40,372 nucleotides of DNA from positions 1 through 40,372 of IMG/VR virus record IMGVR_UViG_3300035130_000102, one strand, 5' to 3'. The notes beneath the pieces were generated by a model. It made no database searches. It was not told the DNA's origin and saw nothing but the letters and a program-made list of their open reading frames with translations. Numbering within the stretch: position 1 is the stretch's first letter; each line of letters starts with the position of its first letter. This stretch comes from a virus. Made by a program: the position numbers and the translations under genes. This document shows positions 4,235-36,600 of the stretch, piece by piece.

Positions 4235-4613
4235 CGCAGCCTCTACAATCTTCTGGCGTCCATCCGTCCATCCAGCACCACGGGTACGGGCATCCCCGGC
4301 TCGGATGCAACGCTTGTCCCGCGGCCCAGAGCTCTGCCTGCAGCCAGCATGCGTTACAGCGATCGGGCCGCTCGTCATCGGGGCGCTCGTCCGCGGGCTG
4401 AGCTTCGCCGCAAACATCGCAGTACCACCCCGGCGCCGGATCTGTATCAGCCTCGGCGAGGGGCTCGTAGTCCTGCCCTCCGCAGCTGCTGGCCTCGTGC
4501 CGGATGCCGGCGCCGGCGCTGCAGTAGCCCACGTTGCTCCGTCGCTTCTCCGCATCCGGCGGATCACGCGTCCACCGGGCGCACGTCTCACAGGTCTGTC
4601 TCGTTTCGCTCAT
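4227..4613 (-). CDS. Cys-rich (Zn-binding-like) hypothetical protein (128 aa)
   Basis: The ATG at 4613 is preceded by GGGAGGG plus 3 nt. Motifs CETCARW, CDVCG and CNAC are present. Confidence 0.65.
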   Translation of the reverse strand: MSETRQTCETCARWTRDPPDAEKRRSNVGYCSAGAGIRHEASSCGGQDYEPLAEADTDPAPGWYCDVCGEAQPADERPDDERPDRCNACWLQAELWAAGQALHPSRGCPYPWCWMDGWTPEDCRGCDG

Positions 4614-7201: not shown

Positions 7202-7524
7202 TCCTCACCGAAGAGGGGCGCGCTGGCCTCGACAAGCTGGCCGAAATTACAAAATGCGGCGCCGTCGCCACGATGGACCCGCGCATTACCGCAGCCCTGA
7301 AATGGATTAAGACGCTGCCGCCGGGGCCGATTCAGCGCTGGCTAGTGCACCTCGATGCCGAGGGCGGCTGCCAGTCGTGTCCGTTTGAGACACAAATCAT
7401 GTCCGGGCTCTGCGGTCTCGACCTGTACACCGGAGCAGGCGAGCACGCGTGCACCTATGACACGGCGCCGGAGACCTGTCAGCTGCGACGGGGGCCGGCG
7501 CTGGTCGATGGGGTGTTGCCGTGA
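7198..7524 (+). CDS. Hypothetical protein (108 aa), CxxC-containing
   Basis: Internal ATG at 7198 in an ATGA overlap with the upstream stop. Confidence 0.6.
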   Translation: MILTEEGRAGLDKLAEITKCGAVATMDPRITAALKWIKTLPPGPIQRWLVHLDAEGGCQSCPFETQIMSGLCGLDLYTGAGEHACTYDTAPETCQLRRGPALVDGVLP

Positions 7525-8675
7525 CCTATCTCGCCCCCGGGCTCTACCCCGACTTGTCGCTCGAGGAGTACCTGGCCATCACCGACAAGGATGGATGGCC
7601 GGCGATCCGCAACGGCCTGCTGCGTGCAGTACGCCACGGCCCGCGCGAGTGTCAGCACCGGCAGCGCTTCGGCGTCACACCGACCAAGGCCATGCTGGCC
7701 GGGACACTCGTGCATACACAGGTGCTGTCGCCGGCCGATTGGCTGCGGCGATTCGTCGAGTGGGATGTGCCCGTGTTCGAGCCGCGGCCGGCGCTGAAAT
7801 GGGACAAGCTGTCGCCGGATCTCTACATCTCGGCGTGCAACCGCTACCGCCTCGAGCGCACCGCCGGCAATGACTGGCGCGCAGCCTACACTGATCAGGA
7901 CGACATGCAGGGGTGCGGCGATGCGCTGATTGACACGCTCGGCACCGTCACCGCAGCGAAAGCGGTCTGCAAAGAGCACTACGAGCGCACTGTCTCGCGC
8001 GTCCCAAAACTGGACGACGACGGCAAGCCGAAGCTCTCGCCGCAGAACCCGAACAGCGGCGAGTACAAGAAATTCGTCGCCGCCAACCCCGACCGGATCA
8101 TCGTCACCCGCGACGAGATCGAGCACGCCAAGCGGATCGCTGTGGCCATCCGGGACAACCCCGAGGCCCGCCGGCGACTGGGGCAGATCTGGCGCACCGA
8201 GCTAACGATCGTGTGGGAGCACGAGGAGACCGGCGCGCTGATGGCCTGCCGTCATGACTGGCTCACGGACCCCCGCGCCCCGCTCGTCACCCTCGGCGAG
8301 CTGAAGACGTGCCGCAGCGCCGAGGAGGGCGCATTCAATCGGCAAGCGGCGGACATGGAGTACCACGCCCAGGCAGCCCACTACCGCGCCGGCTTCCGGG
8401 CCCACTTCGGCGAGCACATCGAGACAGAGTCGGTCTGCCTCGCCGTGGAAAACACCGGCTCCCATGACAACTGCGTCTATACGTGGCCAGGGGGGCATCT
8501 GGACGCTGGCCACGAGCTGAACGAGGAGCGGCTCCAGCAGCTGCTCGAGTGGCGCGATTATGGCGACCAGACATGGCCCTGCAGGCGGACGGCGGCGCAC
8601 TTTGATTTTGAGACGCACGGGCGGGGGCACTTGCTGGGCGAGGACGGAGACGAACTTGATTGGAGCGACTCATGA
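7521..8675 (+). CDS. PD-(D/E)XK recombination exonuclease (RecE/DUF3799-like)
   Basis: 384 aa. GTLVHT near the N-terminus; HDW...LGELKT (D...ExK) core; YHAQAAHY (QxxxY-like) motif. GTGA start overlap. Confidence 0.65.
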   Translation: MTYLAPGLYPDLSLEEYLAITDKDGWPAIRNGLLRAVRHGPRECQHRQRFGVTPTKAMLAGTLVHTQVLSPADWLRRFVEWDVPVFEPRPALKWDKLSPDLYISACNRYRLERTAGNDWRAAYTDQDDMQGCGDALIDTLGTVTAAKAVCKEHYERTVSRVPKLDDDGKPKLSPQNPNSGEYKKFVAANPDRIIVTRDEIEHAKRIAVAIRDNPEARRRLGQIWRTELTIVWEHEETGALMACRHDWLTDPRAPLVTLGELKTCRSAEEGAFNRQAADMEYHAQAAHYRAGFRAHFGEHIETESVCLAVENTGSHDNCVYTWPGGHLDAGHELNEERLQQLLEWRDYGDQTWPCRRTAAHFDFETHGRGHLLGEDGDELDWSDS

Positions 8676-14404: not shown

Positions 14405-15051
14405 TCCCCATTGGAACCGCGAACCTGAACGGCCAGAGCTACGAGCTGCGGCGACGCAATATCGCCGGCAGCTATACCTGGTGGATCGACGACGTGGCCG
14501 CAATCGAGGGCACCTACAGCACGTTCGCCGAGGCCATCGACGCTCTGTGGGAGCAGCTCGGCATCCGCGCTGCCCCCGGGGGATGGTGGGCATCGGAGAG
14601 GGAGTCCACGGCTATTCCTGCGGCCGCCCGGCTACCGCGGACGGTGACGGAGCAGGAGCAGCGGCTCGGGCTGAAGCTCGAAGATTTGCTGCGGAAGCAC
14701 GAGCTGCAGCTCACCGATCGACGCGGCTGCGGCGTCCCCGAGCTCGAGCTAGGCCTGGCCTACCAGCTCGCCGAGGCCCTGGTGCTCGAGGTCCGCGCTG
14801 AGGAGCTGCTCGAGCAGCTGGCGGTGGAGCATGAGATCGAGTGCGAGCTGCAGCAGCTACTCGACGGTGGTTGGGTGATTCTGCCCCCCGGCGACAGCCC
14901 CGATGATTACGCGCTGCTCGCCACCGGCAGCACTCCGCTCGAGGCCGTAGAGGAGCTGCGGCGGGACCTGGAGGCGCCGAGCCTACACCAGGCCAGCGAC
15001 GAGGATCTGCTGCTCGAGCTGCTCAGCCGGGCCAGGGGGAGGGTAGGGTGA
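14401..15051 (+). CDS. Hypothetical acidic protein (216 aa)
   Basis: Internal ATG at 14401 in an ATGA overlap. Confidence 0.6.
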   Translation: MIPIGTANLNGQSYELRRRNIAGSYTWWIDDVAAIEGTYSTFAEAIDALWEQLGIRAAPGGWWASERESTAIPAAARLPRTVTEQEQRLGLKLEDLLRKHELQLTDRRGCGVPELELGLAYQLAEALVLEVRAEELLEQLAVEHEIECELQQLLDGGWVILPPGDSPDDYALLATGSTPLEAVEELRRDLEAPSLHQASDEDLLLELLSRARGRVG

Positions 15052-15500
15052 TCGCCGTCCGTCTCGAGGCCGACGAGGACCTCCGTCTGGTGGTGGCCAG
15101 CGCCTTCGTTGGCGTGGGCGCGCCCGCCGCCGCACCGTGGATGGAGGCATGGGTCGGCGACCAGCTCTGGGTCGAGGTGACGCGGTGGGCTAGCCCCGGG
15201 ACGCCGGCGGAGGAGCTGGCTTTTGCTGACCCGGCGGATAGGCTGTTGCTCGGCCCACAGGGGGGCCAGGAGGCCGTTCCCCCGCCGCCCTGCGAGTGCC
15301 ATTGCGGCTACAGCTGCGGCCGACAGTGTGGCCTCGAGATCATGCAGTGCATGGCTGAGCACTATGAGCACGACTGCGGTCATGTCTGGGATGGCCCAAC
15401 GGAGCGAGGCGAAGAGTCAGGCGGCTGCTGCTGGGAAAGCGCCACGTGCTCGAAGTGCGGCGCGGTGCAGATCTGGCACGACATGGCGTGCGGGCCATGA
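15048..15500 (+). CDS. Cys/His-rich hypothetical protein (150 aa)
   Basis: GTGA overlap start. CECHCGYSCGRQCG...HDCGH...CCWESATCSKCG. Confidence 0.6.
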   Translation: MIAVRLEADEDLRLVVASAFVGVGAPAAAPWMEAWVGDQLWVEVTRWASPGTPAEELAFADPADRLLLGPQGGQEAVPPPPCECHCGYSCGRQCGLEIMQCMAEHYEHDCGHVWDGPTERGEESGGCCWESATCSKCGAVQIWHDMACGP

Positions 15501-15506
15501 CGCCGG

Positions 15507-15719
15507 CTACGGCCCCGGCGGCTCCCCGTCCGGCCCCGGCTCGTCATCGTCCGGCGCCGCGATCTCGCAATAGGTGCCCCGGTAGTACACCGTGCCGTCC
15601 GGGCCCTCGACGCTGTCCACGATCGCTGAGAAGTGCCGGCGACGTACCCGGTGAGCTGCCCAGGCGCCTCCCACGAGGGCCCCGGCGATGATCCCTGCCA
15701 GGAGCGGGATCACCCCCAC
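15507..15719 (-). CDS. Single-pass membrane protein (70 aa); last gene of the minus-strand block (holin or spanin-type candidate)
   Basis: GTG at 15719 is preceded by GGAGG plus 5 nt. Sequence GVIPLLAGIIAGALVGGAWAA then RVRRR and an acidic tail. Confidence 0.55.
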   Translation of the reverse strand: MGVIPLLAGIIAGALVGGAWAAHRVRRRHFSAIVDSVEGPDGTVYYRGTYCEIAAPDDDEPGPDGEPPGP

Positions 15720-16525
15720 GACGGCCTCCTGGCCCTGGTGAGGCCCCACAGAAGCAGCACGAGACATGCAGCGACGGCGACCGCGTTGCCCGCGACGAGG
15801 TAGGGCCAGCCGTCCAGCACCGTGTCGGCGGTCAGCCACGGCAGCACGCACGAGCCCGCCGGGCCGGCGATCAGGGCGAGGCCGGCGAGGTGGGCCGGCG
15901 AGGGGCGGTCAGGCCTCGAGGCCTGGTGAGCGATCCACCGGAGGGCGACGGCGACCGACACGACGACGGCGCCCAGCTCGATCAGGTCGTAGATCCGGAG
16001 CAGCGCCGGCCCGCGTAGGTCGGGGTAGCTGCCGGCGATCCCGGCGGTGAGGAGGAGCCAGACGCCGATCAGCCGCCAGGGTGCAGACGAGCCCGCACGG
16101 CCGCATCCTTGGCCTCGAGCAGCTTTCGGAGGGCGACCGTGCGCTCTGGGCCTGGCTCGATGGTGTCCACGATATGGCGAGCTAGATCGGCAAACGGCTC
16201 CGATGCCCTCTGCAGGCGCTCGGGCAGGTGCTCGTACGCGAACCATTTCATCATGCGATCGTCCATGCCCGAGCAAGTACCACGCCATCGCCGGCAGCGC
16301 CAGCATGCTCGCCGTGTAGAGCCCCACCTCCGCCCACCACGCCACCAGCCACCAGCCCGCCCTCAGCTCCGGCGGCGCCGGCAGCAGCAGCGCCTGGCAC
16401 CACCGTAGGGCGTCGATTGCCAGCACCGCGCCGAGGTAGGCGGCGACGGGCCGGGAGCGGCTCACCAGCGCAGCGAGGCCGGCGGCGGCGTACAGGGCGA
16501 GGGTGAGGGCGGCGAGAAGGGTCAT
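15710..16525 (-). CDS. Polytopic membrane protein ORF (271 aa) whose central loop is overlapped by another ORF
   Basis: Hydrophobic Trp-rich helices at aa 1-85 and about 150-271, with very high GC3. ATGA overlap with the upstream gene. The central ~66 codons have low GC3. Confidence 0.55.
   Translation of the reverse strand: MTLLAALTLALYAAAGLAALVSRSRPVAAYLGAVLAIDALRWCQALLLPAPPELRAGWWLVAWWAEVGLYTASMLALPAMAWYLLGHGRSHDEMVRVRAPARAPAEGIGAVCRSSSPYRGHHRARPRAHGRPPKAARGQGCGRAGSSAPWRLIGVWLLLTAGIAGSYPDLRGPALLRIYDLIELGAVVVSVAVALRWIAHQASRPDRPSPAHLAGLALIAGPAGSCVLPWLTADTVLDGWPYLVAGNAVAVAACLVLLLWGLTRARRPSWG
16069..16266 (-). CDS. 65-aa helical protein nested out of frame inside the membrane ORF
   Basis: ATG..TGA ORF MDDRMMKWFAYEHLPERLQ...ALRKLLEAKDAAVRARLHPGG. 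Hand-counted GC3 is 50/65 here against 29/65 for the long frame over the same nucleotides. Confidence 0.6.
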   Translation of the reverse strand: MDDRMMKWFAYEHLPERLQRASEPFADLARHIVDTIEPGPERTVALRKLLEAKDAAVRARLHPGG

Positions 16526-16872
16526 AGCTTGCGCTCGAGCTCTCTGCGCACGGCCTCTTGTGTCAGCTCATCCCAATCGAAGGAGACGTGATCACGTTTG
16601 CGGCGACTCCGCGCAAGCTGACCCGGCGCGGGACGAAATCGCGGCAGCGGTCGCAGGCGCAATGGCGCCGGCTCCAGCATCGGGTGTAATCCACCGAGGG
16701 GCTCGTAGCGGCGAGCGTCTCGACCCAGCACGTATCGTCGCCACCCAAAACGCAGCCATCGCCAGAAGGCCCAGCGACTAGCCGGCGGCGCCTGCATGAG
16801 GGAAAGCGGACGCATGTCGCGACGGTAGCTCACCGCACCCCCACCCGTGGCTGCTAGAGATAGGCGCTTCAT
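16522..16872 (-). CDS. Arg/Trp-rich hypothetical protein (116 aa)
   Basis: ORF with ATGA overlap to the downstream membrane gene. No clear RBS and moderate GC3. Confidence 0.45.
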   Translation of the reverse strand: MKRLSLAATGGGAVSYRRDMRPLSLMQAPPASRWAFWRWLRFGWRRYVLGRDARRYEPLGGLHPMLEPAPLRLRPLPRFRPAPGQLARSRRKRDHVSFDWDELTQEAVRRELERKL

Positions 16873-16875
16873 GGG

Positions 16876-17037
16876 CTAATTCACCAGGCTCAGACGGATG
16901 CGCTCGACGACGTCCTTAGCCTCGGCGAGGTAGCGATCGACAGCTTCCCAGTCTTTCGCGGCGGCGGCCTCAGCGATGGCATCGTAGAGCCAGACGAGGG
17001 CCTTTTCTGGCTGGGGTGGGCAGGTTCCGTGCGGCAT
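16876..17037 (-). CDS. Small helical protein (53 aa)
   Basis: ATG at 17037 is preceded by GGAGGA plus 8 nt. The tracked start at 17058 is a TTG inside the upstream gene. Confidence 0.5.
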   Translation of the reverse strand: MPHGTCPPQPEKALVWLYDAIAEAAAAKDWEAVDRYLAEAKDVVERIRLSLVN

Positions 17038-17041
17038 ACGC

Positions 17042-17269
17042 TCAATCCTCCATGGCAACCACTACGGTGCCGTTTACGGGGTCTCGGTAGACCAATCGCA
17101 CAACGCCGGTGACGGGGTTGTGCCAAATCATCAGCTCACCAAGCTCTGGCACAGGCGGGCCGTCGTCGCTCACGCGGCGGGGCTCGCAGATGCATAGCTC
17201 ACGCTGCTCGCCGGCCTCTGCCACGGCGCAGCCAGCAAGCAAACACAGTATCAGGCTCAGATGTCTCAT
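17042..17269 (-). CDS. Small lipoprotein (75 aa; lipobox LLAGC)
   Basis: Internal ATG at 17269 in an ATGA overlap. MRHLSLILCLLAGCAVAE fits a signal peptide plus lipobox Cys. Confidence 0.6.
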   Translation of the reverse strand: MRHLSLILCLLAGCAVAEAGEQRELCICEPRRVSDDGPPVPELGELMIWHNPVTGVVRLVYRDPVNGTVVVAMED

Positions 17270-17634
17270 GGTGCTAGCAACCAATACTCGAAGTTTGATG
17301 AGCCGGTGGGCAAGCCGACATACGGCGCAACTCCGTTGAGCCTTACAAGCATCACATCCCCCGGCTTCAAGGTGCAAAATGGGACACAGCTCGGAGACAC
17401 CGAGCCGGTAAACTCGAGGACCCCATCACCGTTATTGCGGCCGACCAGGAGCCCGCCTGGTCCGACGTCGCCGAGCTGGAGCGGCTCCTTGGCGGAGTTG
17501 ATTAGCTGGATATTGTGGATCATGCGTTCGCCGGCGACCGCGACGGACAGTGCCTCGGCGAAACCTGGCGGAAGCGAGCCCTCGGCCGTCCCAAGGTCCC
17601 AGCTGAAACGTAGCGTGATCTGTGCCTGTCCCAT
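17266..17634 (-). CDS. Small beta-rich protein (122 aa) in the slot where podoviruses carry fibre or spike genes
   Basis: Internal ATG at 17634, 1 nt after the upstream stop. Locally lower GC. Confidence 0.55.
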   Translation of the reverse strand: MGQAQITLRFSWDLGTAEGSLPPGFAEALSVAVAGERMIHNIQLINSAKEPLQLGDVGPGGLLVGRNNGDGVLEFTGSVSPSCVPFCTLKPGDVMLVRLNGVAPYVGLPTGSSNFEYWLLAP

Positions 17635-24195: not shown

Positions 24196-27100
24196 TCAGC
24201 TCCTCTGCTGAGATGGTACCCGAAACGTACCCTTTGTGCCAATCTCCAGACTCAGCCCGGAGATCCGATAGCTCTCGCCCGTGGTAGGAATCAGGGCCGG
24301 CTCGTTGTCCTGCCAGGCGACGCTGATGGCGCTGCATTTCTGGCGCTGCACCCCGATCCGGGGCAGGTAGCGCTCCGGCAGCCCGGCAAACTCGGCGATG
24401 TCCGCCGCGGTCCAGATCTTCGTTTGGTGTGGAGTGTCCTCGAAGTCGTGGTAGGCGTCCACCTGCAGACCGTGAGCTGAGCGCCACTCGAGACGCAAGA
24501 AGGTCGACCACACCCGCTGCCAGCCGTTCATGCCGGCGCCCTGTAGCCACGCCATGCGACCGCGGCTGGTCACCCACCGATCGGTGGAGTCGTACCACGT
24601 CGAGCTGTCCTCGCGATAGACGAGCCCCTCGGCGGTCACGCAGCGGTAGATGCCGTCATGGACACAAGCGCTCGCCATGGGCGCGTAGGCTCGGCCCAGA
24701 TCGTTTACGATGTCCCAAACGGTCCATTGCTTTTGATCGTAGTCGTAAACTAGGATGACCCCCTCCTCTCCGCTTAGAGCGTTGCACGTGAAACGCACTT
24801 GCTGCTGATCGGCCACCAGCACAGCGGAGGTGACGACGGGATACTGCTGCGTAAAATCTTCGACCGGCTCGCCGATAAATGCCAGCTCGAGGCCTCGGGT
24901 GAGCAGGTAGATCCCGGCCTCCGATTGGAACATCACGCCGCCCGGGTAGCTCACGACGCTCCGGGGCTCGATGCAGCCGGCATCGTCAGCCACCGGAGTG
25001 AGCGGCGAGAAACTGTTGTTCAAACCGGCGTTGTCCGGTCCGTCTCCTGCCACCACGAGCACCTCATCCGGGGTGAAGATTGCGATCTTGTCGTCAAGAT
25101 CCCCAAGCCCGGTCACCTCGAGCCCGGAGGCCAAAATAAAGCCGAGCAGGTCGTCAAACTCCGGCACCACCTGGTCCTCAAGCTCAGTCGACGGGGCGAA
25201 GCTCTTCGAGGGCTGGACACGGGAGCGTCGCCAGACATCGCCGAGCCATACACGATCCTTGACCGTGGCAGCCAGACGACCACCAGCGGGGCATGCCGCC
25301 GGCAGCTCAGCTTGTCCGTCGGTGTACAGCGGCGGTCCGGTGCCGCTGAGGGTCGCGCCGTCAAACTGCTGGCCGTGGTCGAGAATCGTAATCGTGCTCA
25401 CTGACAGATCGTTTGGCTCGAGCCGCACTGGCTTACTGAACCGCTTAAACACGCCGTCGTTGCCGGCGCGGTACCCAACGCAGTTGACCTCGAGCCCCTT
25501 GTAGCTCCGGCTCGTGGCGGCAGTGGTATTGATCGTGAATAGCACCGCGTTGCTCGGGTCCTCAACGGTCTGCTGGTCGAGGTTGCCCGGGATGGAGCGG
25601 TGCAGCATCCCGCGGGGGCCGTACATCTCCCAGGTGAACAGGTAGCTATACGTGCCCTCTGGTAGCTCGGTACCGTACGCTTCTGGATCAATCGTAGTCG
25701 GAGTGGACGAGACAACGATGGGCGGCTGGACGATGCCCAGCTCATGCGAGGAGCCGCCCTCGTACCACGTGTAGCAGCCGCCCCCGATGACAGCCGCCCC
25801 TTTGCTGGTGACGGTGACGCCCACCGGCTCGCTGAAGCTCATCCGCAGCTCATCGCAGGAGATGCGACGCTCAGCCCGCTCCCCGATCTGAGCGATGCGC
25901 TCGCCCATCGTGCGCCACTGCCCCGTCTCAGCCTCTATCACGTGGTTGCCAGCCCCGCGCGGCAGTGAGCCCGGGGCGACGCGGCGGGAGAACTGCCCGG
26001 CGCCGACGTCCAGCACGCCCACGAGAATCGGCACACGGCCGATCCCGCCCGGCTTCGGGTTGATCTCGTCGGCCATCACGTCGACCACGATTGTGCTGTT
26101 GAACAGCTCGTCCCCGGTGGTGCTGAGCACCGCGTAGGCTCGCCCGTTTTGGTCGAAAGGACGAGACTTTAGGGCCGTGTGCCACATAGTATAGGTCGCG
26201 TCGAGGTCCCCTCCGTCGGTTGCCCTGGCGCTACGATTACCCGTGCTGCTGGCCTCCGTCCAAAGGCACACCACCCGGCCGTTGACCTCCGCTACCCCGA
26301 GGCTGAGAGCCGGCTCGGCCAAAGCGTCTATCAGAATCGGCCCCCAAAGCACCGAGAGGGGGCCGCTACGGATAGCGAAGAGAAACAGCGCTCCGGCTCC
26401 TTCTCCTTCAGCTGCCGCCAGAAGGTAGATCACATCTTGCGTGGGCGACTCGGCGATGGCAATGCGATACCAATCGTATGTGCTATTTGTGTTCTGCACC
26501 TGGATGGCGTGGGCGCTATTGTACCGCAGGATCTTCCAGTCCTGGGATGGATCGACGACGTAGGCCAGAACGTAGTCTCCGGCCTCGGTCACATGGTCGA
26601 GACCGATCGCGTCGTACATGCGGCCCTCGTCTGCAAACGTCGCGTAGCAGTCTGTCACAGGCGTTGCCTTGCTGCCCGGTGGAGTCGTGGGCGAGGCGAT
26701 GTTCCAACTGAGGCGGTTGATGTCGACTGGCCCCGACGAAATGGCTCGCTGGCCGGTGTGGTAGAACAGCATGAGCTTGTCGGCAGCGTGGGCGCAACGG
26801 GGCCCGTATGGCGGATCGGTGGTGTTGCCTTTGGCCGAGTCGTAGACCTGCACGTCCACCACCCGCTGCCCGTCTACTGTCTCAACGATCGACTCAATTG
26901 CGAATGTACTGTAGAGATTGAAGCCGACGAGCTCATACTCATCCGTGAGGGCCGCCCGCGCTGCGCCGTAGATGATATAGTCGCCGAGCTTGTCCAGATC
27001 GGCCAGCTCGTGATTCACTGAGCTGTGAAACTTTTGGGTCACCTTGCCCACAAACGGTGACACTGGCCCGCGGTCAGTCCAGCGGTCCAGTGCATCGACG

Positions 27101-27366
27101 TAGCCCCAGATGCGATCCGGCCCGACGATGCACAGCTCCTCTCCCGTGCTGAATATCGCCCGCGCCCCTGGTACTGCGTCCACCCCGTTGACCTGCAGAT
27201 CCGTCATCGGGGTGAAGCCGTGGCGCTTCGAGAGGCGGCCGAGCTTGTCGAGGTACAGGTTGCGGGCCTCTAGCAGCCGCTGCTGCGGCACCACCACCCG
27301 CTCCTCGACGTGCTGCGCGAGCCCGCCGGAGATGGGGATGTCTACCTTTTGCTTACGCGGTGCCAC
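24196..27366 (-). CDS. Tail nozzle / tail tubular protein B-like (T7 gp12-like) protein, 1056 aa
   Basis: The N-terminus IPISGGLAQHVEERVVVPQQRLLEARNLYLDKLGRLSKRHGF parallels the GGISQQP...Q...N...G.L.KRP pattern of gp12-type nozzles. Size and position, directly after a 198-aa gene, also fit. Confidence 0.55.
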   Translation of the reverse strand: MAPRKQKVDIPISGGLAQHVEERVVVPQQRLLEARNLYLDKLGRLSKRHGFTPMTDLQVNGVDAVPGARAIFSTGEELCIVGPDRIWGYVDALDRWTDRGPVSPFVGKVTQKFHSSVNHELADLDKLGDYIIYGAARAALTDEYELVGFNLYSTFAIESIVETVDGQRVVDVQVYDSAKGNTTDPPYGPRCAHAADKLMLFYHTGQRAISSGPVDINRLSWNIASPTTPPGSKATPVTDCYATFADEGRMYDAIGLDHVTEAGDYVLAYVVDPSQDWKILRYNSAHAIQVQNTNSTYDWYRIAIAESPTQDVIYLLAAAEGEGAGALFLFAIRSGPLSVLWGPILIDALAEPALSLGVAEVNGRVVCLWTEASSTGNRSARATDGGDLDATYTMWHTALKSRPFDQNGRAYAVLSTTGDELFNSTIVVDVMADEINPKPGGIGRVPILVGVLDVGAGQFSRRVAPGSLPRGAGNHVIEAETGQWRTMGERIAQIGERAERRISCDELRMSFSEPVGVTVTSKGAAVIGGGCYTWYEGGSSHELGIVQPPIVVSSTPTTIDPEAYGTELPEGTYSYLFTWEMYGPRGMLHRSIPGNLDQQTVEDPSNAVLFTINTTAATSRSYKGLEVNCVGYRAGNDGVFKRFSKPVRLEPNDLSVSTITILDHGQQFDGATLSGTGPPLYTDGQAELPAACPAGGRLAATVKDRVWLGDVWRRSRVQPSKSFAPSTELEDQVVPEFDDLLGFILASGLEVTGLGDLDDKIAIFTPDEVLVVAGDGPDNAGLNNSFSPLTPVADDAGCIEPRSVVSYPGGVMFQSEAGIYLLTRGLELAFIGEPVEDFTQQYPVVTSAVLVADQQQVRFTCNALSGEEGVILVYDYDQKQWTVWDIVNDLGRAYAPMASACVHDGIYRCVTAEGLVYREDSSTWYDSTDRWVTSRGRMAWLQGAGMNGWQRVWSTFLRLEWRSAHGLQVDAYHDFEDTPHQTKIWTAADIAEFAGLPERYLPRIGVQRQKCSAISVAWQDNEPALIPTTGESYRISGLSLEIGTKGTFRVPSQQRS

Positions 27367-31003: not shown

Positions 31004-32227
31004 CTACTTTCCCGGAAGCTTATCGGTCTCGCCGCGGAGATAGCGGTCTAGCGCGGCTGCCTCTTCCTCGTCCGTCATCCGGCCACGTGCGCTGGCGTTG
31101 GCGGCGACGTTAGCGCCACCAAGTTTTCGCTCGCCTTTCGCGCCCGGAGCGGCGGGGGAGCTTTCCCCGGCAGAGGTTGCACCCTGGCTGCCCGAAGCGT
31201 CGGCGGGTGCGCCCGGCAAGAGCTGCTTGATACGCTCATGTCTGTGCGTGTAGCGCTCCTTTGCGAGCCGGTCAAGAGCACCTAGGAATTTTTGCACACC
31301 GGTGCGCAAAACCTTGCCGTCCTTATCGACCTCGTTTTCGGTGAACTGCCGGATCCATAACAGCTCGGTATTGCTAGGGTTTTTGGTCAGCTCGGCCTTG
31401 GCGTTTTGGAGCTCCGTCAGCATGCTCGTGATGATCGCCCGCTGGTCCTCCGGAGGCTCGGCTGCCAGGTATGGCGTCTCTTCTGGCTTGGTGGTGAGCG
31501 CCGTGAAGCACGCCCCGGCCGCCTGCTTGAGCTCGGCCTGCACAGCTGCCTGCGTTGCGGCCGCCTGGTCCGCCTCCCGGCCATGCTTCAGCTCGGCGAT
31601 CTCCTTGCGCAGCTCGGCAGCCCAGGCCGGCTCGTCGGCTGCCGCTGGCGGCTTCGCCTTGGCCCGTTCAGCCGGCGTCCCTTCGCTCAGGCGCCTCTCG
31701 GCGAGGGCCGCAAACACCTTGTCCTCGTCCGCGCCGGCCGCCCTGATCATCGCATCGAAGCCGGCGATCGGGTCCTGGGCAAAGAGCTTCGTGGCCGCGG
31801 ACACCTGCGCCAGCTGCTGCTCGAGCAGCTCGGCCTGGCCCTGGATCTTGCCCATCAGCTGCTCGGCTGCGGCCTCCTTCTGTCGCGCCCGGGCCATGCG
31901 CCGGCGGGCCTTGCTGAGGGTTGGGGCGGGCTCGTCCGTCGGCTGGGGCTCTTCGTCGGGCTTGCTCTCGTTCGCTGAGGCCGGGTGGGGCTCTTCGTCG
32001 GCTGCGGGTGCGGGTGGCGCATCCCCTTTGGCCTCGGCGATCATCTCGCGGTGGTGCTGCTTGACCACGCCGGCGAGGTCTTTGTTGAGCTGGTCGAGCT
32101 CGGCCGCATCGTCCGGCGGCTGGTCGCTTACGGTCTGGGTAACCGGCTCGGACTGCGCCGGGTCAGGTGGTGCGCCGGCCGGGGGGTCGGCTACGGTCAC
32201 GTCTACCGTGGTGCTCGCTGTCGTCAT
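31004..32227 (-). CDS. Scaffolding protein candidate (407 aa)
   Basis: Internal ATG at 32227 in an ATGA overlap with the portal stop. Acidic, Ala/Glu/Lys-rich helical protein between portal and capsid. Confidence 0.6.
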   Translation of the reverse strand: MTTASTTVDVTVADPPAGAPPDPAQSEPVTQTVSDQPPDDAAELDQLNKDLAGVVKQHHREMIAEAKGDAPPAPAADEEPHPASANESKPDEEPQPTDEPAPTLSKARRRMARARQKEAAAEQLMGKIQGQAELLEQQLAQVSAATKLFAQDPIAGFDAMIRAAGADEDKVFAALAERRLSEGTPAERAKAKPPAAADEPAWAAELRKEIAELKHGREADQAAATQAAVQAELKQAAGACFTALTTKPEETPYLAAEPPEDQRAIITSMLTELQNAKAELTKNPSNTELLWIRQFTENEVDKDGKVLRTGVQKFLGALDRLAKERYTHRHERIKQLLPGAPADASGSQGATSAGESSPAAPGAKGERKLGGANVAANASARGRMTDEEEAAALDRYLRGETDKLPGK

Positions 32228-34143
32228 GTCGGGAGTCCTCCTGTTAGCCCGGGTGGCATCGCGCCTCCCGGTGGCATCATGGGCCCAGCGGAACCGGCCA
32301 GCGGTAGTGGGCCGCCTGCGCCGGGCATCGGACCTGCGCCGGGCGGGAGCAGCTCGGCACCAGGAGGCAGCGGCGGCTCTCCCGGTGGGGCTGCGGCGGG
32401 CTCGGGCTCCTGGCTCTTGACGCCGAGGTTCGGCGACGTCGAGTGCTCGAACCACTTGCGGAGCTTGGCCAGGTCTGCCTCGTCTGCCCCCTGAAGCACG
32501 CCGAGGCTGTGCATGCTCAGGCAGATCTGGCGGCCCAGCTCGAGAGGCTGAAACGTATCTGGTGGGACATAATCGCCGCCTTCTAGCATCCGCTGAAACA
32601 TGTCCTCCATGCGCTCGTAGTTCGATGTCTCGGCCTCTTTGATCGCCTTCAGGTCGGGGTCCTCTTGCATTCGGAGGGCCTGCTGTGGCGTGATGACCTG
32701 TTTCTCTGACAGCTCAACGATCCCCTCCATGCGAGCGGCTGGCTCCTTCGCGAGGGCCGACGTCGGGGCGAGCTTGATGCGCATCGAGTCGACGTCTTTG
32801 GCCAGCTCTGACCAGTCCATTTTTTCCCGCCGGCCGCGGCGCTCGTATTCAGCTTCCCGCTTGCCGCCCTTGGCCAGTCGGCTTTCGGCGCGCACCCACT
32901 CCTGGGCTACCCGGCAATGCGCAGCGCCATACATGCGATCCATGGTTACGAGCCGGCGCTTCTGGTGGGTGCGGTAGATCTGCTGTGCTCGCCCTGATGC
33001 GCTCGCCATCCCCGCTGGAATCTGGCTGGAGACTGACAGCTCGGAGATCCCTACCGCCTCGTGAGCCCAGCGCTTGTGGCGCTCCATCTGATTATAGTGC
33101 TCTGGCGGGAACACCTGCGGCGTCACAAATTCGGGCTTTTCCGTGCACTCGATGATCGCCCCGATGGTGTTGTTGATGTGGCTCTTTGTGATCGATCCAG
33201 GTCGGCAGAGCACCCTGGGCACGCTGATCCGGTGCGCGCCTTCCTGTGTCCGCCGCGCGTACTTGTTGAGCTCCTGCTGATCGGGCTCGGCCCGGGAGAT
33301 GAGCGGTACTCCCCAAAATCCGATGCGCGGCAGCAGGCACCGCACAGGCACGATTGGGTAATCGTCCTGTTTCCACTGCTCCCGCTCGAGCAGGCAGCCG
33401 CTGATGACGAGGCACCTGAGCCCGTCGCCCGCTTCCGGCTTGCTCGGCAGATGGAAGCACTCATAGGTCTCGACCACGTCGCGGCGGCGAATGAACGGCG
33501 CCCATAGCGAGCCGCTGGCCCCAGTGCCGGCCGAGACAATGGCCAGGCGCTGCTCCTCGTCGTCGTACAGCTCGTACAGCAGATCCTTGTCCACGTGGCG
33601 CCGGATGTAGAGCGTCCGCGGCATGACCCCGACACAGCGGGTGTCGTCCATGATCACGTCCGGCGGGAAGAGGCGCTGAATCGCCACGTTGTCGTGCTCG
33701 GCGCACACCGAGAAAAAGCCGGTCCCGGCCAGCACCGCGTCGAGGAGCACATCGGGGCCGAGCGTCTCCATGCCCTCCGACTCGAACTTGCAGTCGCAGG
33801 CGCTGGTGAGGCGCTCAGCGTCCTTGCGCTGCCGGTAGGTGCCGCCCGCCGTGTAGAACATGGGCCGCGGCTGCGTCTGGGTGATCTCCGTCACCACCGT
33901 GTCAGCGATGCCCCCGATGACGTTGTGAGCCATCCGCTCAGTCCGCCGGCGGGGGATGTAATCCGGCAGCACGCCGCCCCCGACATCGTCGCCGTACAAG
34001 GCGTAGCGCTCGAAAATCCCATACTGGCGCTCGGCCGTCTCGTTGTCGGTGGTGACCGCCGCCGAGTGAGCCAGCTGCCACAGCTCACGATCGTCCTCTG
34101 CTAGCCACCAGCGGCCCATCTTGGTTGGGTCTGCCTCGTCCAT
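32224..34143 (-). CDS. Portal protein
   Basis: 639-aa ORF downstream of TerL. GGAGGTG RBS. Size and position fit. Pro/Gly-rich C-terminal tail. Confidence 0.75.
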   Translation of the reverse strand: MDEADPTKMGRWWLAEDDRELWQLAHSAAVTTDNETAERQYGIFERYALYGDDVGGGVLPDYIPRRRTERMAHNVIGGIADTVVTEITQTQPRPMFYTAGGTYRQRKDAERLTSACDCKFESEGMETLGPDVLLDAVLAGTGFFSVCAEHDNVAIQRLFPPDVIMDDTRCVGVMPRTLYIRRHVDKDLLYELYDDEEQRLAIVSAGTGASGSLWAPFIRRRDVVETYECFHLPSKPEAGDGLRCLVISGCLLEREQWKQDDYPIVPVRCLLPRIGFWGVPLISRAEPDQQELNKYARRTQEGAHRISVPRVLCRPGSITKSHINNTIGAIIECTEKPEFVTPQVFPPEHYNQMERHKRWAHEAVGISELSVSSQIPAGMASASGRAQQIYRTHQKRRLVTMDRMYGAAHCRVAQEWVRAESRLAKGGKREAEYERRGRREKMDWSELAKDVDSMRIKLAPTSALAKEPAARMEGIVELSEKQVITPQQALRMQEDPDLKAIKEAETSNYERMEDMFQRMLEGGDYVPPDTFQPLELGRQICLSMHSLGVLQGADEADLAKLRKWFEHSTSPNLGVKSQEPEPAAAPPGEPPLPPGAELLPPGAGPMPGAGGPLPLAGSAGPMMPPGGAMPPGLTGGLPT

Positions 34144-34527: not shown

Positions 34528-34883
34528 TCGGCCTCCGTCACCTCGATGCCGCTGCGGTCCGCCTCCTGCTGCCGGCGCAGGTCAGCGCTCTGCTGCCGCA
34601 GCTCGGCGAGGGGTGGCAGGGGGCCCTCTGGCTCGTCGTCGCCTCCGAACTCGTAATCGTCGGCGTGGTGAGCCTCGGGCGTTGGGCTATCGGCGAGGGT
34701 GACCGCAGCGTCCGGCCCCAGCTCGATCTCGACGTCCCCGCGATAGCTGCGCTTGTACCGCGTCACGCCATGGGCCCGGAGGTCCTGTAGCAGGTGTCGG
34801 AAGTCGATTTCGGTCTGAGTCATGGCCTGCGGGTCTCCGTCAAGCCTGGCTTCTATCGCCTGCCCAAAATTCTTACCACCCAT
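34524..34883 (-). CDS. Hypothetical acidic protein (119 aa)
   Basis: Internal ATG (codon 8 of the tracked ORF) overlaps the TerL stop by 11 nt. Confidence 0.55.
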   Translation of the reverse strand: MGGKNFGQAIEARLDGDPQAMTQTEIDFRHLLQDLRAHGVTRYKRSYRGDVEIELGPDAAVTLADSPTPEAHHADDYEFGGDDEPEGPLPPLAELRQQSADLRRQQEADRSGIEVTEAE

Positions 34884-36600
34884 ATTCGTCCTCCAGCTCC
34901 TCATATCGGCACTCGTCCGGGTCGCCCTCTGCTAGCCCCAGCCGCTGCGCCATCTTGTCCGCCTCGTCCAGCTCGTGCTGTGTCCAGTCTCCTGGGAGCT
35001 GCTCCGGCTCCCTGTCGGGTCTCTGTAGCACCTGTGTGTAGCCCAGCGCAAGGGCGGCGGCGTAGTCGCAGTGCCTACCGTCGCCGGTGAGGGGCAGCTC
35101 TACGACCACGCCGGACAGGGTGGTGCGCTTCACGACACGACTCAGATCGCCTAGCAGAGCGGGGCATGGGTGCAGCTCGAGTGACCGGTGATCGTGGTGT
35201 CCGCGCTCGTGCATGGCGAGGGCCGACTTGACGGCCTCGAAGCTCTGGACCTTATCAGCCATCCGCAACGCTTTACCCTCCGGCGACAACACCTCGATCA
35301 GGTACAGCCCGTGCTGCCGGGCGACCGTCCGGAGGGCGTCAGCGCCCCATGGGTCGGTATAGACGCGGTTGCAGCGGTACGGCCGGAGCAGCTCGGCGAT
35401 CTCGGCGAACACAGCGTTGGGATCGAGCGGAGCGGCGGAGCTGCCCTGCCACTGCCGGCAGAGGGCGACGTCATCGCGGTAGCCGTCGATCAGCTCTCGC
35501 ACCGTCAACAGCACCAGCGCCCACGCATTGCCCCTGGTGGCGGGATCGATCACGGCTACGTAGTGCTGCCGGGGGTGGGGCGGTGAGTCGTTGTGCGGGC
35601 AGGCCGGCTCGCTGTTGGACGATGGCAGGCCGGCTCGCTGCCGGGCATCGCAGTCGCACCGGGCCGCCGGCCGCGCCAGCTTCTGCAGGTAGCTGAGGGC
35701 GAAGATCTTCTGCGGCGGCGACTGCCACTGATTCGTCGCGACGAGCCAGGCGCTCTCGCCGTCATCCTTCGCCCGGATGGCCTCGTACTTGCCCGGGGGA
35801 TACTGCAGCGGGTTCAGCGTGTGGCCCTCGCACCCCTCCCAGCCGATGACGACCACCGATTTCTGCCGGCTGGGGCGGCCGCCGTGCTCCTTCGCGGCCT
35901 CGTAGACGGGGCCTTCTGTGCCCCATTTGCTTCCGAGGTAGACGATTTGAGCGCCGGGCAGGAGCCTGTCAAGGGCAGCGGTGCGCGTTGCCTTGACCGA
36001 GATCTGCCGCTCGTCGCCGTGCATCCTGGTGGCCTCGTCGAGGGCGAGCCCGATGCACCACCGCGACAGCACAGCGGCGCCACCGGCCTTGCCGGCTGCT
36101 ACCACGATCTCGACCTCGGCCCCGGAAGGGTGGTGGACGATGGCCGTGAGTGAGCTGTCCGATGGGTCACGGGCCGCAAGATGCGCAAAAGGCCCACGCA
36201 GTGCCTCGGCGATGACGGCGAAGATGGCCTTCGCCTTGTCCTTCTCGATCGAGATGATGGTGTATCGCGGGCGCTCGCCCTTGACATCGCCGGCGGCGGC
36301 GAGGTCTACGGTCTGAGTTGCCCGGAGCGCGAGGCCGGCGATGATCGTGGACTTGCCGGTCCGGCTCGGCGCAAGGAGGTACAGCTCATCCGGCTGCCCC
36401 CACAGTAGATCGACGCGCCCCACCGCCTCGATCACGTCCGGGTGTGACGCCAGCTCGGCGAGGGGCTCCCCGGTGGCGATGCGGCAGATCGCGCGCTGCA
36501 GCGGGGTGGCGGCGGTCAGACCGAGGCCGGCCCTGAACGTGACGATGGCCTCGAGATTGGTGCGGAGGGCCCGCTCAGCTGCCTTGTCGATGGGGGTCAC
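34873..36600 (-). CDS. terL: Terminase large subunit
   Basis: Walker A LLAPSRTGKST. C-terminal RNase-H-like nuclease pattern VAVIDPATRGNAWALVLL ... VYTDPWG. Lies adjacent to the TerS-like gene and upstream of the portal. Confidence 0.85.
   Translation of the reverse strand: MTPIDKAAERALRTNLEAIVTFRAGLGLTAATPLQRAICRIATGEPLAELASHPDVIEAVGRVDLLWGQPDELYLLAPSRTGKSTIIAGLALRATQTVDLAAAGDVKGERPRYTIISIEKDKAKAIFAVIAEALRGPFAHLAARDPSDSSLTAIVHHPSGAEVEIVVAAGKAGGAAVLSRWCIGLALDEATRMHGDERQISVKATRTAALDRLLPGAQIVYLGSKWGTEGPVYEAAKEHGGRPSRQKSVVVIGWEGCEGHTLNPLQYPPGKYEAIRAKDDGESAWLVATNQWQSPPQKIFALSYLQKLARPAARCDCDARQRAGLPSSNSEPACPHNDSPPHPRQHYVAVIDPATRGNAWALVLLTVRELIDGYRDDVALCRQWQGSSAAPLDPNAVFAEIAELLRPYRCNRVYTDPWGADALRTVARQHGLYLIEVLSPEGKALRMADKVQSFEAVKSALAMHERGHHDHRSLELHPCPALLGDLSRVVKRTTLSGVVVELPLTGDGRHCDYAAALALGYTQVLQRPDREPEQLPGDWTQHELDEADKMAQRLGLAEGDPDECRYEELEDEYGW

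Follow-up and report, generated by a model that had tools for sequence, protein, structure and literature searches.

A small phage gene nested, probably by insertion, in the loop-coding DNA of a seven-transmembrane late gene

The nested locus

The window analyzed here is the whole of a 40,372-nucleotide (nt) metagenomic contig, the IMG/VR virus record IMGVR_UViG_3300035130_000102, which by appearance is a podovirus-type phage genome with 68% GC. On its minus strand, an open reading frame (ORF) of 271 amino acids (aa) encloses a complete second ORF of 65 aa in another reading frame. Herein, the long ORF is termed the host gene and the short one the nested or cargo gene. Their parts are arranged as follows.

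15710..16525, minus strand: host gene, a 271-aa ORF of a rare phage membrane-protein family with seven transmembrane (TM) helices; it runs unbroken through the insert.
16267..16525, minus strand: host N-part, codons 1-86, TM1-TM3; GC content at third codon positions (GC3) 81/85 in the host frame; AlphaFold2 (AF2) helices 3-21, 25-47, and 58-86.
16069..16266, minus strand: nested cargo gene, 65 codons plus TGA, with an ATG start; phase +1 to the host; phrog_1761/phrog_5120.
15710..16068, minus strand: host C-part, codons ~153-271, TM4-TM7, in the same frame as the N-part; GC3 111/118; AF2 helices 148-165, 173-203, 210-232, and 240-265.

The nested ORF starts at nt 260 of the 271-aa ORF—i.e. in phase +1. 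Both ORFs had been described in an original prediction made from the DNA letters and lie where it placed them, and its hand counts of GC3 are reproduced: 26/28 for the first 28 host codons, 50/65 for the nested frame, and 29 for the host frame within the overlap (29/64, or 30/66 for host codons 87-152). Two real coding signals are present in two frames. In a frame-specific sliding profile, GC3 of the host frame drops from 0.95-1.0 to 0.27-0.53 over codons ~80-140 and then recovers. The host gene is joined to its neighbors by the short start/stop overlaps that had been noted before, namely ATGA at 16522-16525 (4 nt, host start with the upstream ORF) and GTGGGGGTGA at 15710-15719 (10 nt, with the downstream single-pass membrane-protein gene). 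A further overlap, CTGA at 16069-16072, places a CTG across the TGA of the nested ORF.

Identity and origin of the nested gene

In a PHROG profile search, the nested protein matches phrog_1761 (E 1.7e-26, residues 1-61) and phrog_5120 (E 6.2e-19), both of which are families of unknown function. The short ORF is, as had been proposed, a real gene. A database search in which 8,000 candidates were scored returned at least 7,963 homologous clusters at E<=1e-3, the best of which are 78-83% identical, and tblastn located homologues in 292 phage records, with hosts including Vibrio, Erwinia, Acinetobacter, Gordonia, Brevibacterium, Ruegeria, and others. In these phage records, the homologues are stand-alone genes found in varied contexts—after a T7-like phage RNA polymerase, after a holin, or among the small genes of jumbo phages. 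The closest stand-alone relatives, one of which lies in a genome of Tautonia (Planctomycetes), are all exactly 65 aa long and stand behind 60-80-nt spacers and GGAG-type ribosome-binding sites. Compared with these stand-alone genes, the DNA similarity of the window starts exactly at the ATG and stops exactly at the stop codon TGA. Because stand-alone homologues occur by the thousands in unrelated phages, the nested gene was imported and not born in place.

The nested protein keeps 23/23 invariant and 16/16 near-invariant columns of a 50-sequence alignment and has both the length of 65 aa and the pattern M[DE][DE]RM.KWF ... HPGG of its closest subfamily. Its AF2 model (predicted local distance difference test score, pLDDT, of 92) consists of three helices and is predicted to be soluble; the protein contains no Cys, no lipobox, no signal peptide, and no hydrophobic N terminus. 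From its sequence, the short ORF appears to be an intact, genuine phage gene brought in by insertion. The exact 65-aa sequence of the window is not among the family matches listed, and the public gene call gives only the 271-aa ORF, as a “hypothetical protein.” The model has no structure match in the PDB, and the protein has no Pfam domain and nothing in NCBIfam or PADLOC. An intron, an intein, or a homing-endonuclease insertion was considered and rejected: no Rfam family is found in 15000-17500, neither splicing motifs nor an endonuclease are present, and the insert consists of one 198-nt ORF.

Architecture of the host membrane protein

The host belongs to a small family. A profile search of 1.8 billion representatives returned only 78 members, typically of 205-220 aa (~212 aa for a typical member), and the 271-aa protein of the window matches the profile of this family with E 1.1e-101 over profile positions 1-223. 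Eight homologues (P0002-P0009, 214-295 aa) align across both hydrophobic halves as one protein, and the shortest of them, P0005, joins the two halves directly. In at least 24 of 38 aligned family members, the TM3-TM4 loop consists of 4-6 residues, is basic, and is of the “RRRP” type. The window protein departs from this norm by a TM3-TM4 loop of 66 residues and a total length of 271 aa, and this departure is the insert.

In the AF2 model of the 271-aa protein (predicted TM-score, pTM, of 0.79), seven helices are modeled with a pLDDT above 90, in agreement with the polytopic membrane protein that had been predicted, and residues 87-147 form a low-confidence coil. The host-frame reading of the insert comprises 66 disordered, Arg/Ala/Gly-rich residues with a pLDDT of 44-61; the insert-derived loop contains 13 Arg, 1 Lys, 5 His, 1 Asp, and 2 Glu, hence a net charge of +11 (R+K minus D+E). 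The positive-inside rule, applied to the basic loops and the C terminus of the model, would place the TM3-TM4 loop on the cytoplasmic side, with which the +11 charge is compatible. When compared with homologues, the ratio of nonsynonymous to synonymous substitution rates (dN/dS) of the host C-part is no higher than that of the N-part. Foldseek with the 7-TM model yielded only generic bundles resembling G-protein-coupled receptors (E>0.2), and NCBIfam and PADLOC scans of the host protein yielded nothing.

Database listings of the 7-TM family also contain half-size entries, of which P0137 and P0166 hold only the N-half and P0142, P0165, and P0179 only the C-half. The contigs of P0137 and P0142, the two that were looked up, are very short (823-1,103 nt). 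These entries could be genes split at the TM3-TM4 loop or mere truncations at contig ends.

Reading phase and the open host frame

The host reads the cargo in the −1 frame of the latter. Three high-GC stand-alone homologues were examined (L023, L024, and AGM5), and none of them has a stop in this frame; only lower-GC homologues do. The frame is open at high GC because a stop would need a T at the third position of a cargo codon, which is rare there. Among 67-codon stretches taken from the genes of the window itself, 26.5% contain no stop in the −1 frame. As an insert that runs from start to stop has a length that is automatically a multiple of three, and as the frame is open by composition, an open host frame is no more than chance would give and nothing exotic. 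The earlier observation that the long frame never acquires a stop thus holds across the overlap but is not remarkable at high GC.

The other alternative cargo frame holds a conserved TGATGA. An insertion in phase 0 would truncate the host at the cargo stop, and the remaining phase would meet TGATGA; hence, the observed phase is the sole insertion phase that leaves the host whole and the only one that selection would let through.

Recurrence in related phages

The arrangement recurs in two relatives. The protein P0203 (272 aa) falls into the 90%-identity cluster of the window protein and is encoded on a separate 17,728-nt (17.7-kb) contig of the Joint Genome Institute (JGI); it carries the same insert with no stop or frameshift. 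In a protein comparison with the window, 12/199 flank residues differ versus 1/66 residues of the insert, and this sole change, R151W (CGG->TGG), is synonymous in the nested frame (GGC->GGT). The identical 271-aa protein of the window itself was recovered by both the JGI and the Logan assemblies.

The second relative, P0147 on contig L025, stems from an unrelated run of the Sequence Read Archive (SRA), SRR16071517, and is divergent and syntenic; at the DNA level, its host N-part is 68% identical to that of the window. The phrog_1761 profile recognizes its nested ORF with E 1.8e-24, and this ORF occupies the same loop in the same +1 phase as in the window. The left junctions of the two lie within one codon (3 nt) of each other: with the junction marked by a slash, the window reads GGG C/ATG and L025 reads GGG CAC C/ATG. 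The host frame of L025 is open to the end of the contig, over ~61 available insert codons. The last 23 nt of this contig (2358-2380) are an Illumina adapter, AGATCGGAAGAGCGTCGTGTAGG—a contamination in the public Logan assembly that falsely lengthens the called P0147. The window and L025 do not share a conserved loop sequence, and the two nested copies are not sisters: the window copy is closer to 97 of 115 stand-alone homologues than to the copy in L025.

In contig L015 (1814-2101), the first ~16 codons of the small conserved “MPHGTCPP...” (MPHGT) gene, which normally lies directly before the 7-TM gene, are joined in frame to a member of the 65-aa cargo family (phrog_5120, E 2.7e-22). The fusion stands directly upstream of the 7-TM gene, which makes it the third family member captured within a few hundred bases of this locus.

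Other relatives contain unrelated inserts of 30-65 residues in the TM3-TM4 or TM5-TM6 loop, in which no gene was recognized. The loop inserts of P0004, P0130, P0007, P0133, P0136, P0002 (loop 2), P0009 (loop 2), and P0179 were compared with six-frame translations of family genes as candidates for the same cargo in another frame or strand, and were rejected. Among the 48 comparisons, the best score was 54, which is reached by 4/500 shuffles of a single comparison before correction for all 48; the positive control scored 146-151. Alternative-frame ORFs in the inserts of L001, L006, and L008 gave no convincing PHROG match. Further nested cases were found neither by a protein search with the host-frame loop peptide nor by DNA pattern scans of viral and genome collections, and a related-locus search returned known relatives only.

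Some of these inserts have features of their own. P0130, on an 8,604-nt Logan contig, and P0004, on a 1,286-nt contig from JGI sample 3300042731, carry ~65-residue inserts at the same loop with an Arg/Ala/Gly/Pro composition as of off-frame sequence, that of P0130 following “FGH/D...” (insertion point at the slash); they hold the 65-aa family in no frame and may hide other nested genes. Loop 1 of P0007 (L006, ~4440-4560) holds a low-GC insert with the palindrome CTAGCGATAACGCTAG, bounded by the direct repeat CCTCGAGGG, a pattern that suggests the trace of a small mobile element and not a gene. In the window, a 12-nt perfect inverted repeat, GCTGCCGGCGAT / ATCGCCGGCAGC (codons LPAM and IAGS; 16287-16298 and 16028-16039), flanks the TM3-TM4 loop, and most relatives have kept both of its arms. 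Such conserved flanks could provide a route for loop cassettes to move by homologous recombination.

A wider reading, which we put forward tentatively and consider to be on the doubtful side, is that the TM3-TM4 loop is a recurrent intragenic cargo slot. Herein, the same small family, possibly an Acb2-like anti-defense family (see below), would have been captured independently in different lineages and always in the read-through phase, with other relatives carrying different inserts of ~35-65 residues there. It draws support from the window and L025 copies not being each other's closest relatives, from left junctions one codon apart, and from the third capture in L015.

How the arrangement arose

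The explanation that we favor, with a probability of roughly three in four, is insertional nesting: a pre-existing small mobile phage gene landed in the TM3-TM4-loop DNA of a 7-TM late gene. A 65-codon gene of the phrog_1761/5120 family would have entered the DNA for the short cytoplasmic loop. With the cargo spanning start to stop (198 nt) and sitting one base out of phase, host ribosomes would miss the cargo stop, read the cargo in its stop-free −1 frame, and regain the native frame for TM4-TM7. The product would be a full-length membrane protein in which the basic loop of 4-6 residues is swapped for the 66-residue, disordered +11 loop. The identities of both genes, the boundaries of the insert, the continuity of the host frame, and the recurrence of the arrangement are direct observations. 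Beyond them, the host protein probably still works, and the nested ORF would be translated by internal initiation independent of a Shine-Dalgarno sequence.

Several points weigh against insertional nesting. Both frames are known from sequence alone. A host frame open by chance has a probability of 0.27 to ~1.0, and for the window alone its openness does not prove that the host remains under selection. Exact excision of the 198 nt would leave no basic loop; the insertion was therefore not clean, and native loop codons were lost or replaced. The contrast between insert and flanks in P0203, a protein-only comparison, is not significant (p=0.2), and in L025 the right junction is absent, the contig ending in adapter. 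In the window as in L025, the ATG of the nested copy follows plain host coding sequence that contains no Shine-Dalgarno sequence, and no promoter-like site was found near the insert. In the absence of a Shine-Dalgarno sequence, the cargo may be weakly translated or silent.

Among the alternatives, the one that deserves most attention is that the insertion killed the host, the 271-aa ORF being a recent pseudogene kept open by base composition and only the 65-aa gene mattering. The −1 frame of the cargo family is open by default at high GC, with a chance of 0.27 for an open 67-codon stretch, the multiple-of-three length is automatic, and the loop is not conserved between the window and L025, all of which a pseudogene would accommodate. 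It would not account as readily for a distal half that has a GC3 of 111/118, conserved residues, and no relaxed dN/dS, nor for P0203, which has accumulated 12 flank substitutions yet no stop or frameshift; the ~61 open codons of L025 and the translational coupling of the downstream gene to the host stop codon speak in the same direction, and we consider the pseudogene unlikely. Less probable again is a gene split into TM1-3 with a junk tail and TM4-7, the latter reinitiating near the cargo stop at the CTG of CTGA (16069-16072), as the original prediction had offered for its second reading. The CTGA overlap is there, and the half-size entries described above suggest that the family may tolerate a split at this site; these entries may, however, be truncations, given their very short contigs. 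Moreover, no ATG, GTG, TTG, or Shine-Dalgarno sequence lies near the start of TM4, and without a host-frame stop, ribosomes from the N-part would read through regardless. Thus, of that second reading the entry of a small gene stands, and the splitting does not, as three contigs carry an unbroken host frame and the distal half has no canonical start or Shine-Dalgarno sequence.

The two remaining explanations carry little weight. An assembly chimera or compensating indels could have produced a false long ORF, and it is true that all data are metagenomic and that contig L025 ends in an Illumina adapter; the recovery of the identical protein by the JGI and Logan assemblies and the same architecture in P0203, on another JGI contig, and in L025, from an unrelated SRA run, make an artifact very improbable. 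True overprinting, with the 65-aa ORF born de novo in the loop-coding DNA, was the first reading of the original prediction and is the least probable of all. It would fit the same-strand embedded geometry and the surroundings of membrane-protein and lipoprotein genes where the late operon ends, and a gene so born would be expected to have a restricted distribution with no homologues beyond the overlap. The phylogenetic distribution already refutes it: stand-alone homologues fill more than 7,900 clusters and 292 phage records, and they extend to unrelated phages and to a Tautonia prophage; in addition, insert-free host genes have a loop of 4-6 residues, and the nested frame has the stronger coding signal. 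Insertional nesting hence reverses the order of events: the nested frame is ancestral and imported, and the host-frame loop is novel.

Neighboring genes and expression signals

As had been described, small membrane-protein and lipoprotein genes surround the host gene in the last part of the late operon. Its direct neighbors are the following.

15507..15719, minus strand: downstream single-pass membrane protein, 70 aa; GTG start overlapping the host stop by 10 nt; conserved in relatives.
16522..16872, minus strand: variable spacer that separates the MPHGT gene from the host gene and contains a 116-aa ORF; a cargo hotspot in relatives.
16876..17037, minus strand: MPHGT gene, 53 aa, conserved; normally directly before the 7-TM gene.

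A GGAG motif stands 5-10 nt ahead of most genes in the window; the downstream single-pass gene has an AGGAGG within the 3′ end of the host. Translation of this gene is coupled to the stop codon of the host, and homologous ORFs follow the 7-TM gene in L001, L003, L006, L008, L009, and L015. The 116-aa ORF of the spacer is Arg/Trp-rich; its coding signal is weak, it lacks a Shine-Dalgarno sequence, and searches returned no homologues. The ~350-nt spacer itself is absent from the simplest relatives, the two genes abutting in L003, and at the same site L001 carries a 70-aa ORF and L009 a 386-aa N6/N4 methyltransferase. Between the MPHGT gene and the gene of a “MGQAQ” protein, a 75-aa ORF (17042-17269, minus strand) has a textbook lipoprotein signal, MRHLSLILCLLAGC, and no Shine-Dalgarno sequence; since the “MGQAQ” and MPHGT genes are adjacent in L025, it appears to be a further cargo insertion. 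The motif “EAKD..V.R” occurs in both the MPHGT gene and the 65-aa family, possibly as recombination homology, but a paralogous relationship was rejected at an hhalign probability of 0.9%.

The surroundings of the insert yielded neither a terminator nor an Rfam element. The host bases just before the nested ATG can pair with nested codons 14-17 through a perfect inverted repeat of 9 bp, GCTCGGGCA / TGCCCGAGC (16266-16274 and 16218-16226), and the homologous stem of L025, TTTGGGCA / TGCCCAAA (~2153-2160 and 2220-2227), differs by two compensatory changes from C-G to T-A. A conserved RNA hairpin at the nested start was nevertheless rejected: the minimum free energy is no better than that of shuffled sequences (z −0.65 and +0.36), the best fold of the window pairs differently, and the repeat may be due to chance.

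The lysis function that had been suggested for this location finds no support, as no endolysin, holin, or spanin family match was obtained in any protein scanned. Elsewhere in the window, the following genes can be recognized.

246-1706: primase.
7521-8675: exonuclease VIII.
24196-27366: internal virion protein.
32224-34143: portal.
34873-36600: terminase.

Most of the other large window proteins scanned, including those of 883, 698, and 611 aa, have no Pfam or PHROGs match.

A possible relationship to Acb2/Tad1

Acb2/Tad1 hairpin proteins (cyclic-oligonucleotide sponges, PF24729) are small helical-hairpin phage proteins, a type to which the nested protein may also belong. In a Foldseek search of BFVD, entries annotated as Acb2/Tad1 dominate once matches to the family itself are set aside (~12 entries), with template modeling scores of 0.57-0.73 and probabilities up to 0.99, but with E values of 0.4 to ~6. 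The PF24729 profile does not match the nested protein of the window at E<=10. On other family members, it scores repeatedly below threshold (best 17.5 bits, E 0.0048; another E 0.011), the gathering score being 27 bits and the control, T4 Vs.4, reaching 71 bits. With hhalign, the nested protein aligns to T4 Vs.4 in the C-terminal helix only, with a probability of 1.8%. The nested protein thus misses the Pfam cut-off, and it differs further from Acb2/Tad1 in being ~25 residues shorter than T4 Vs.4 and in offering no mappable binding residues. The nested protein may plausibly be a distant relative of these cyclic-nucleotide sponges, although this is the less probable of the two outcomes.

Comparison with known systems and implications

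Overlap between viral genes is generally explained by overprinting, whereby one frame is ancestral and the other is born de novo in place (PMC8227390). The embedded frames of Rz1 in Rz and of phiX174 E in D are regarded as having been born in this manner, and insertion as a route to gene overlap is not mentioned in that review (PMC8227390). The locus described here resembles lambda Rz/Rz1 and phiX174 E in D in that a complete ORF lies within another on the same strand, in another frame, and in a late operon. It differs from them in that the embedded gene is old and imported and the host-frame loop is new. The formal likeness to Rz/Rz1 that had been drawn also fails at the level of the products: in the Rz/Rz1 spanin, an outer-membrane lipoprotein with a lipobox Cys is encoded within a type II single-TM protein, whereas here a soluble three-helix protein without signal peptide, lipobox, or Cys, and hence no o-spanin, is nested in a 7-TM host.

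In apple stem grooving virus, the movement-protein gene is nested in a variable linker of the replicase-coat polyprotein (PMC8227390). This is the closest described analogue, as a conserved nested gene there lies over a highly variable, structurally unimportant host linker, and the two evolve asymmetrically. It concerns, however, a eukaryotic RNA virus for which no insertion from a stand-alone pool has been shown, whereas in the present case both insert-free hosts and stand-alone cargo exist. Phage morons and accessory cargo share with the nested gene that they are small, promiscuous, and widely distributed and that the late-operon end is rich in cargo—neighboring sites holding a methyltransferase and small ORFs. 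Morons are intergenic and bring their own signals; the nested gene lies within coding sequence and has no ribosome-binding site. Foreign DNA that is tolerated in a permissive loop or surface site with the frame kept is also known from Rickettsia palindromic elements, inteins, and genes split by homing endonucleases. Compared with these in-frame mobile insertions, the insert described here is a complete protein-coding gene that is read in a different frame.

The locus shows another route to gene overlap: a finished gene enters from outside, and what is “new” in protein sequence comes from the host reading it out of frame. It is an unusually clean case, since the insert-free host, the stand-alone cargo, and the nested arrangement can all be compared. 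For high-GC phages in general, a drop of GC3 within a long ORF can flag a real gene that gene callers have missed. If the cargo is an Acb2-like sponge, an anti-defense gene would be hidden within a membrane gene of the structural operon. If the TM3-TM4 loop is indeed a cargo slot, the cargo would gain late-operon transcription at no cost to the host gene, and each capture would make a new host-frame peptide out of foreign DNA.

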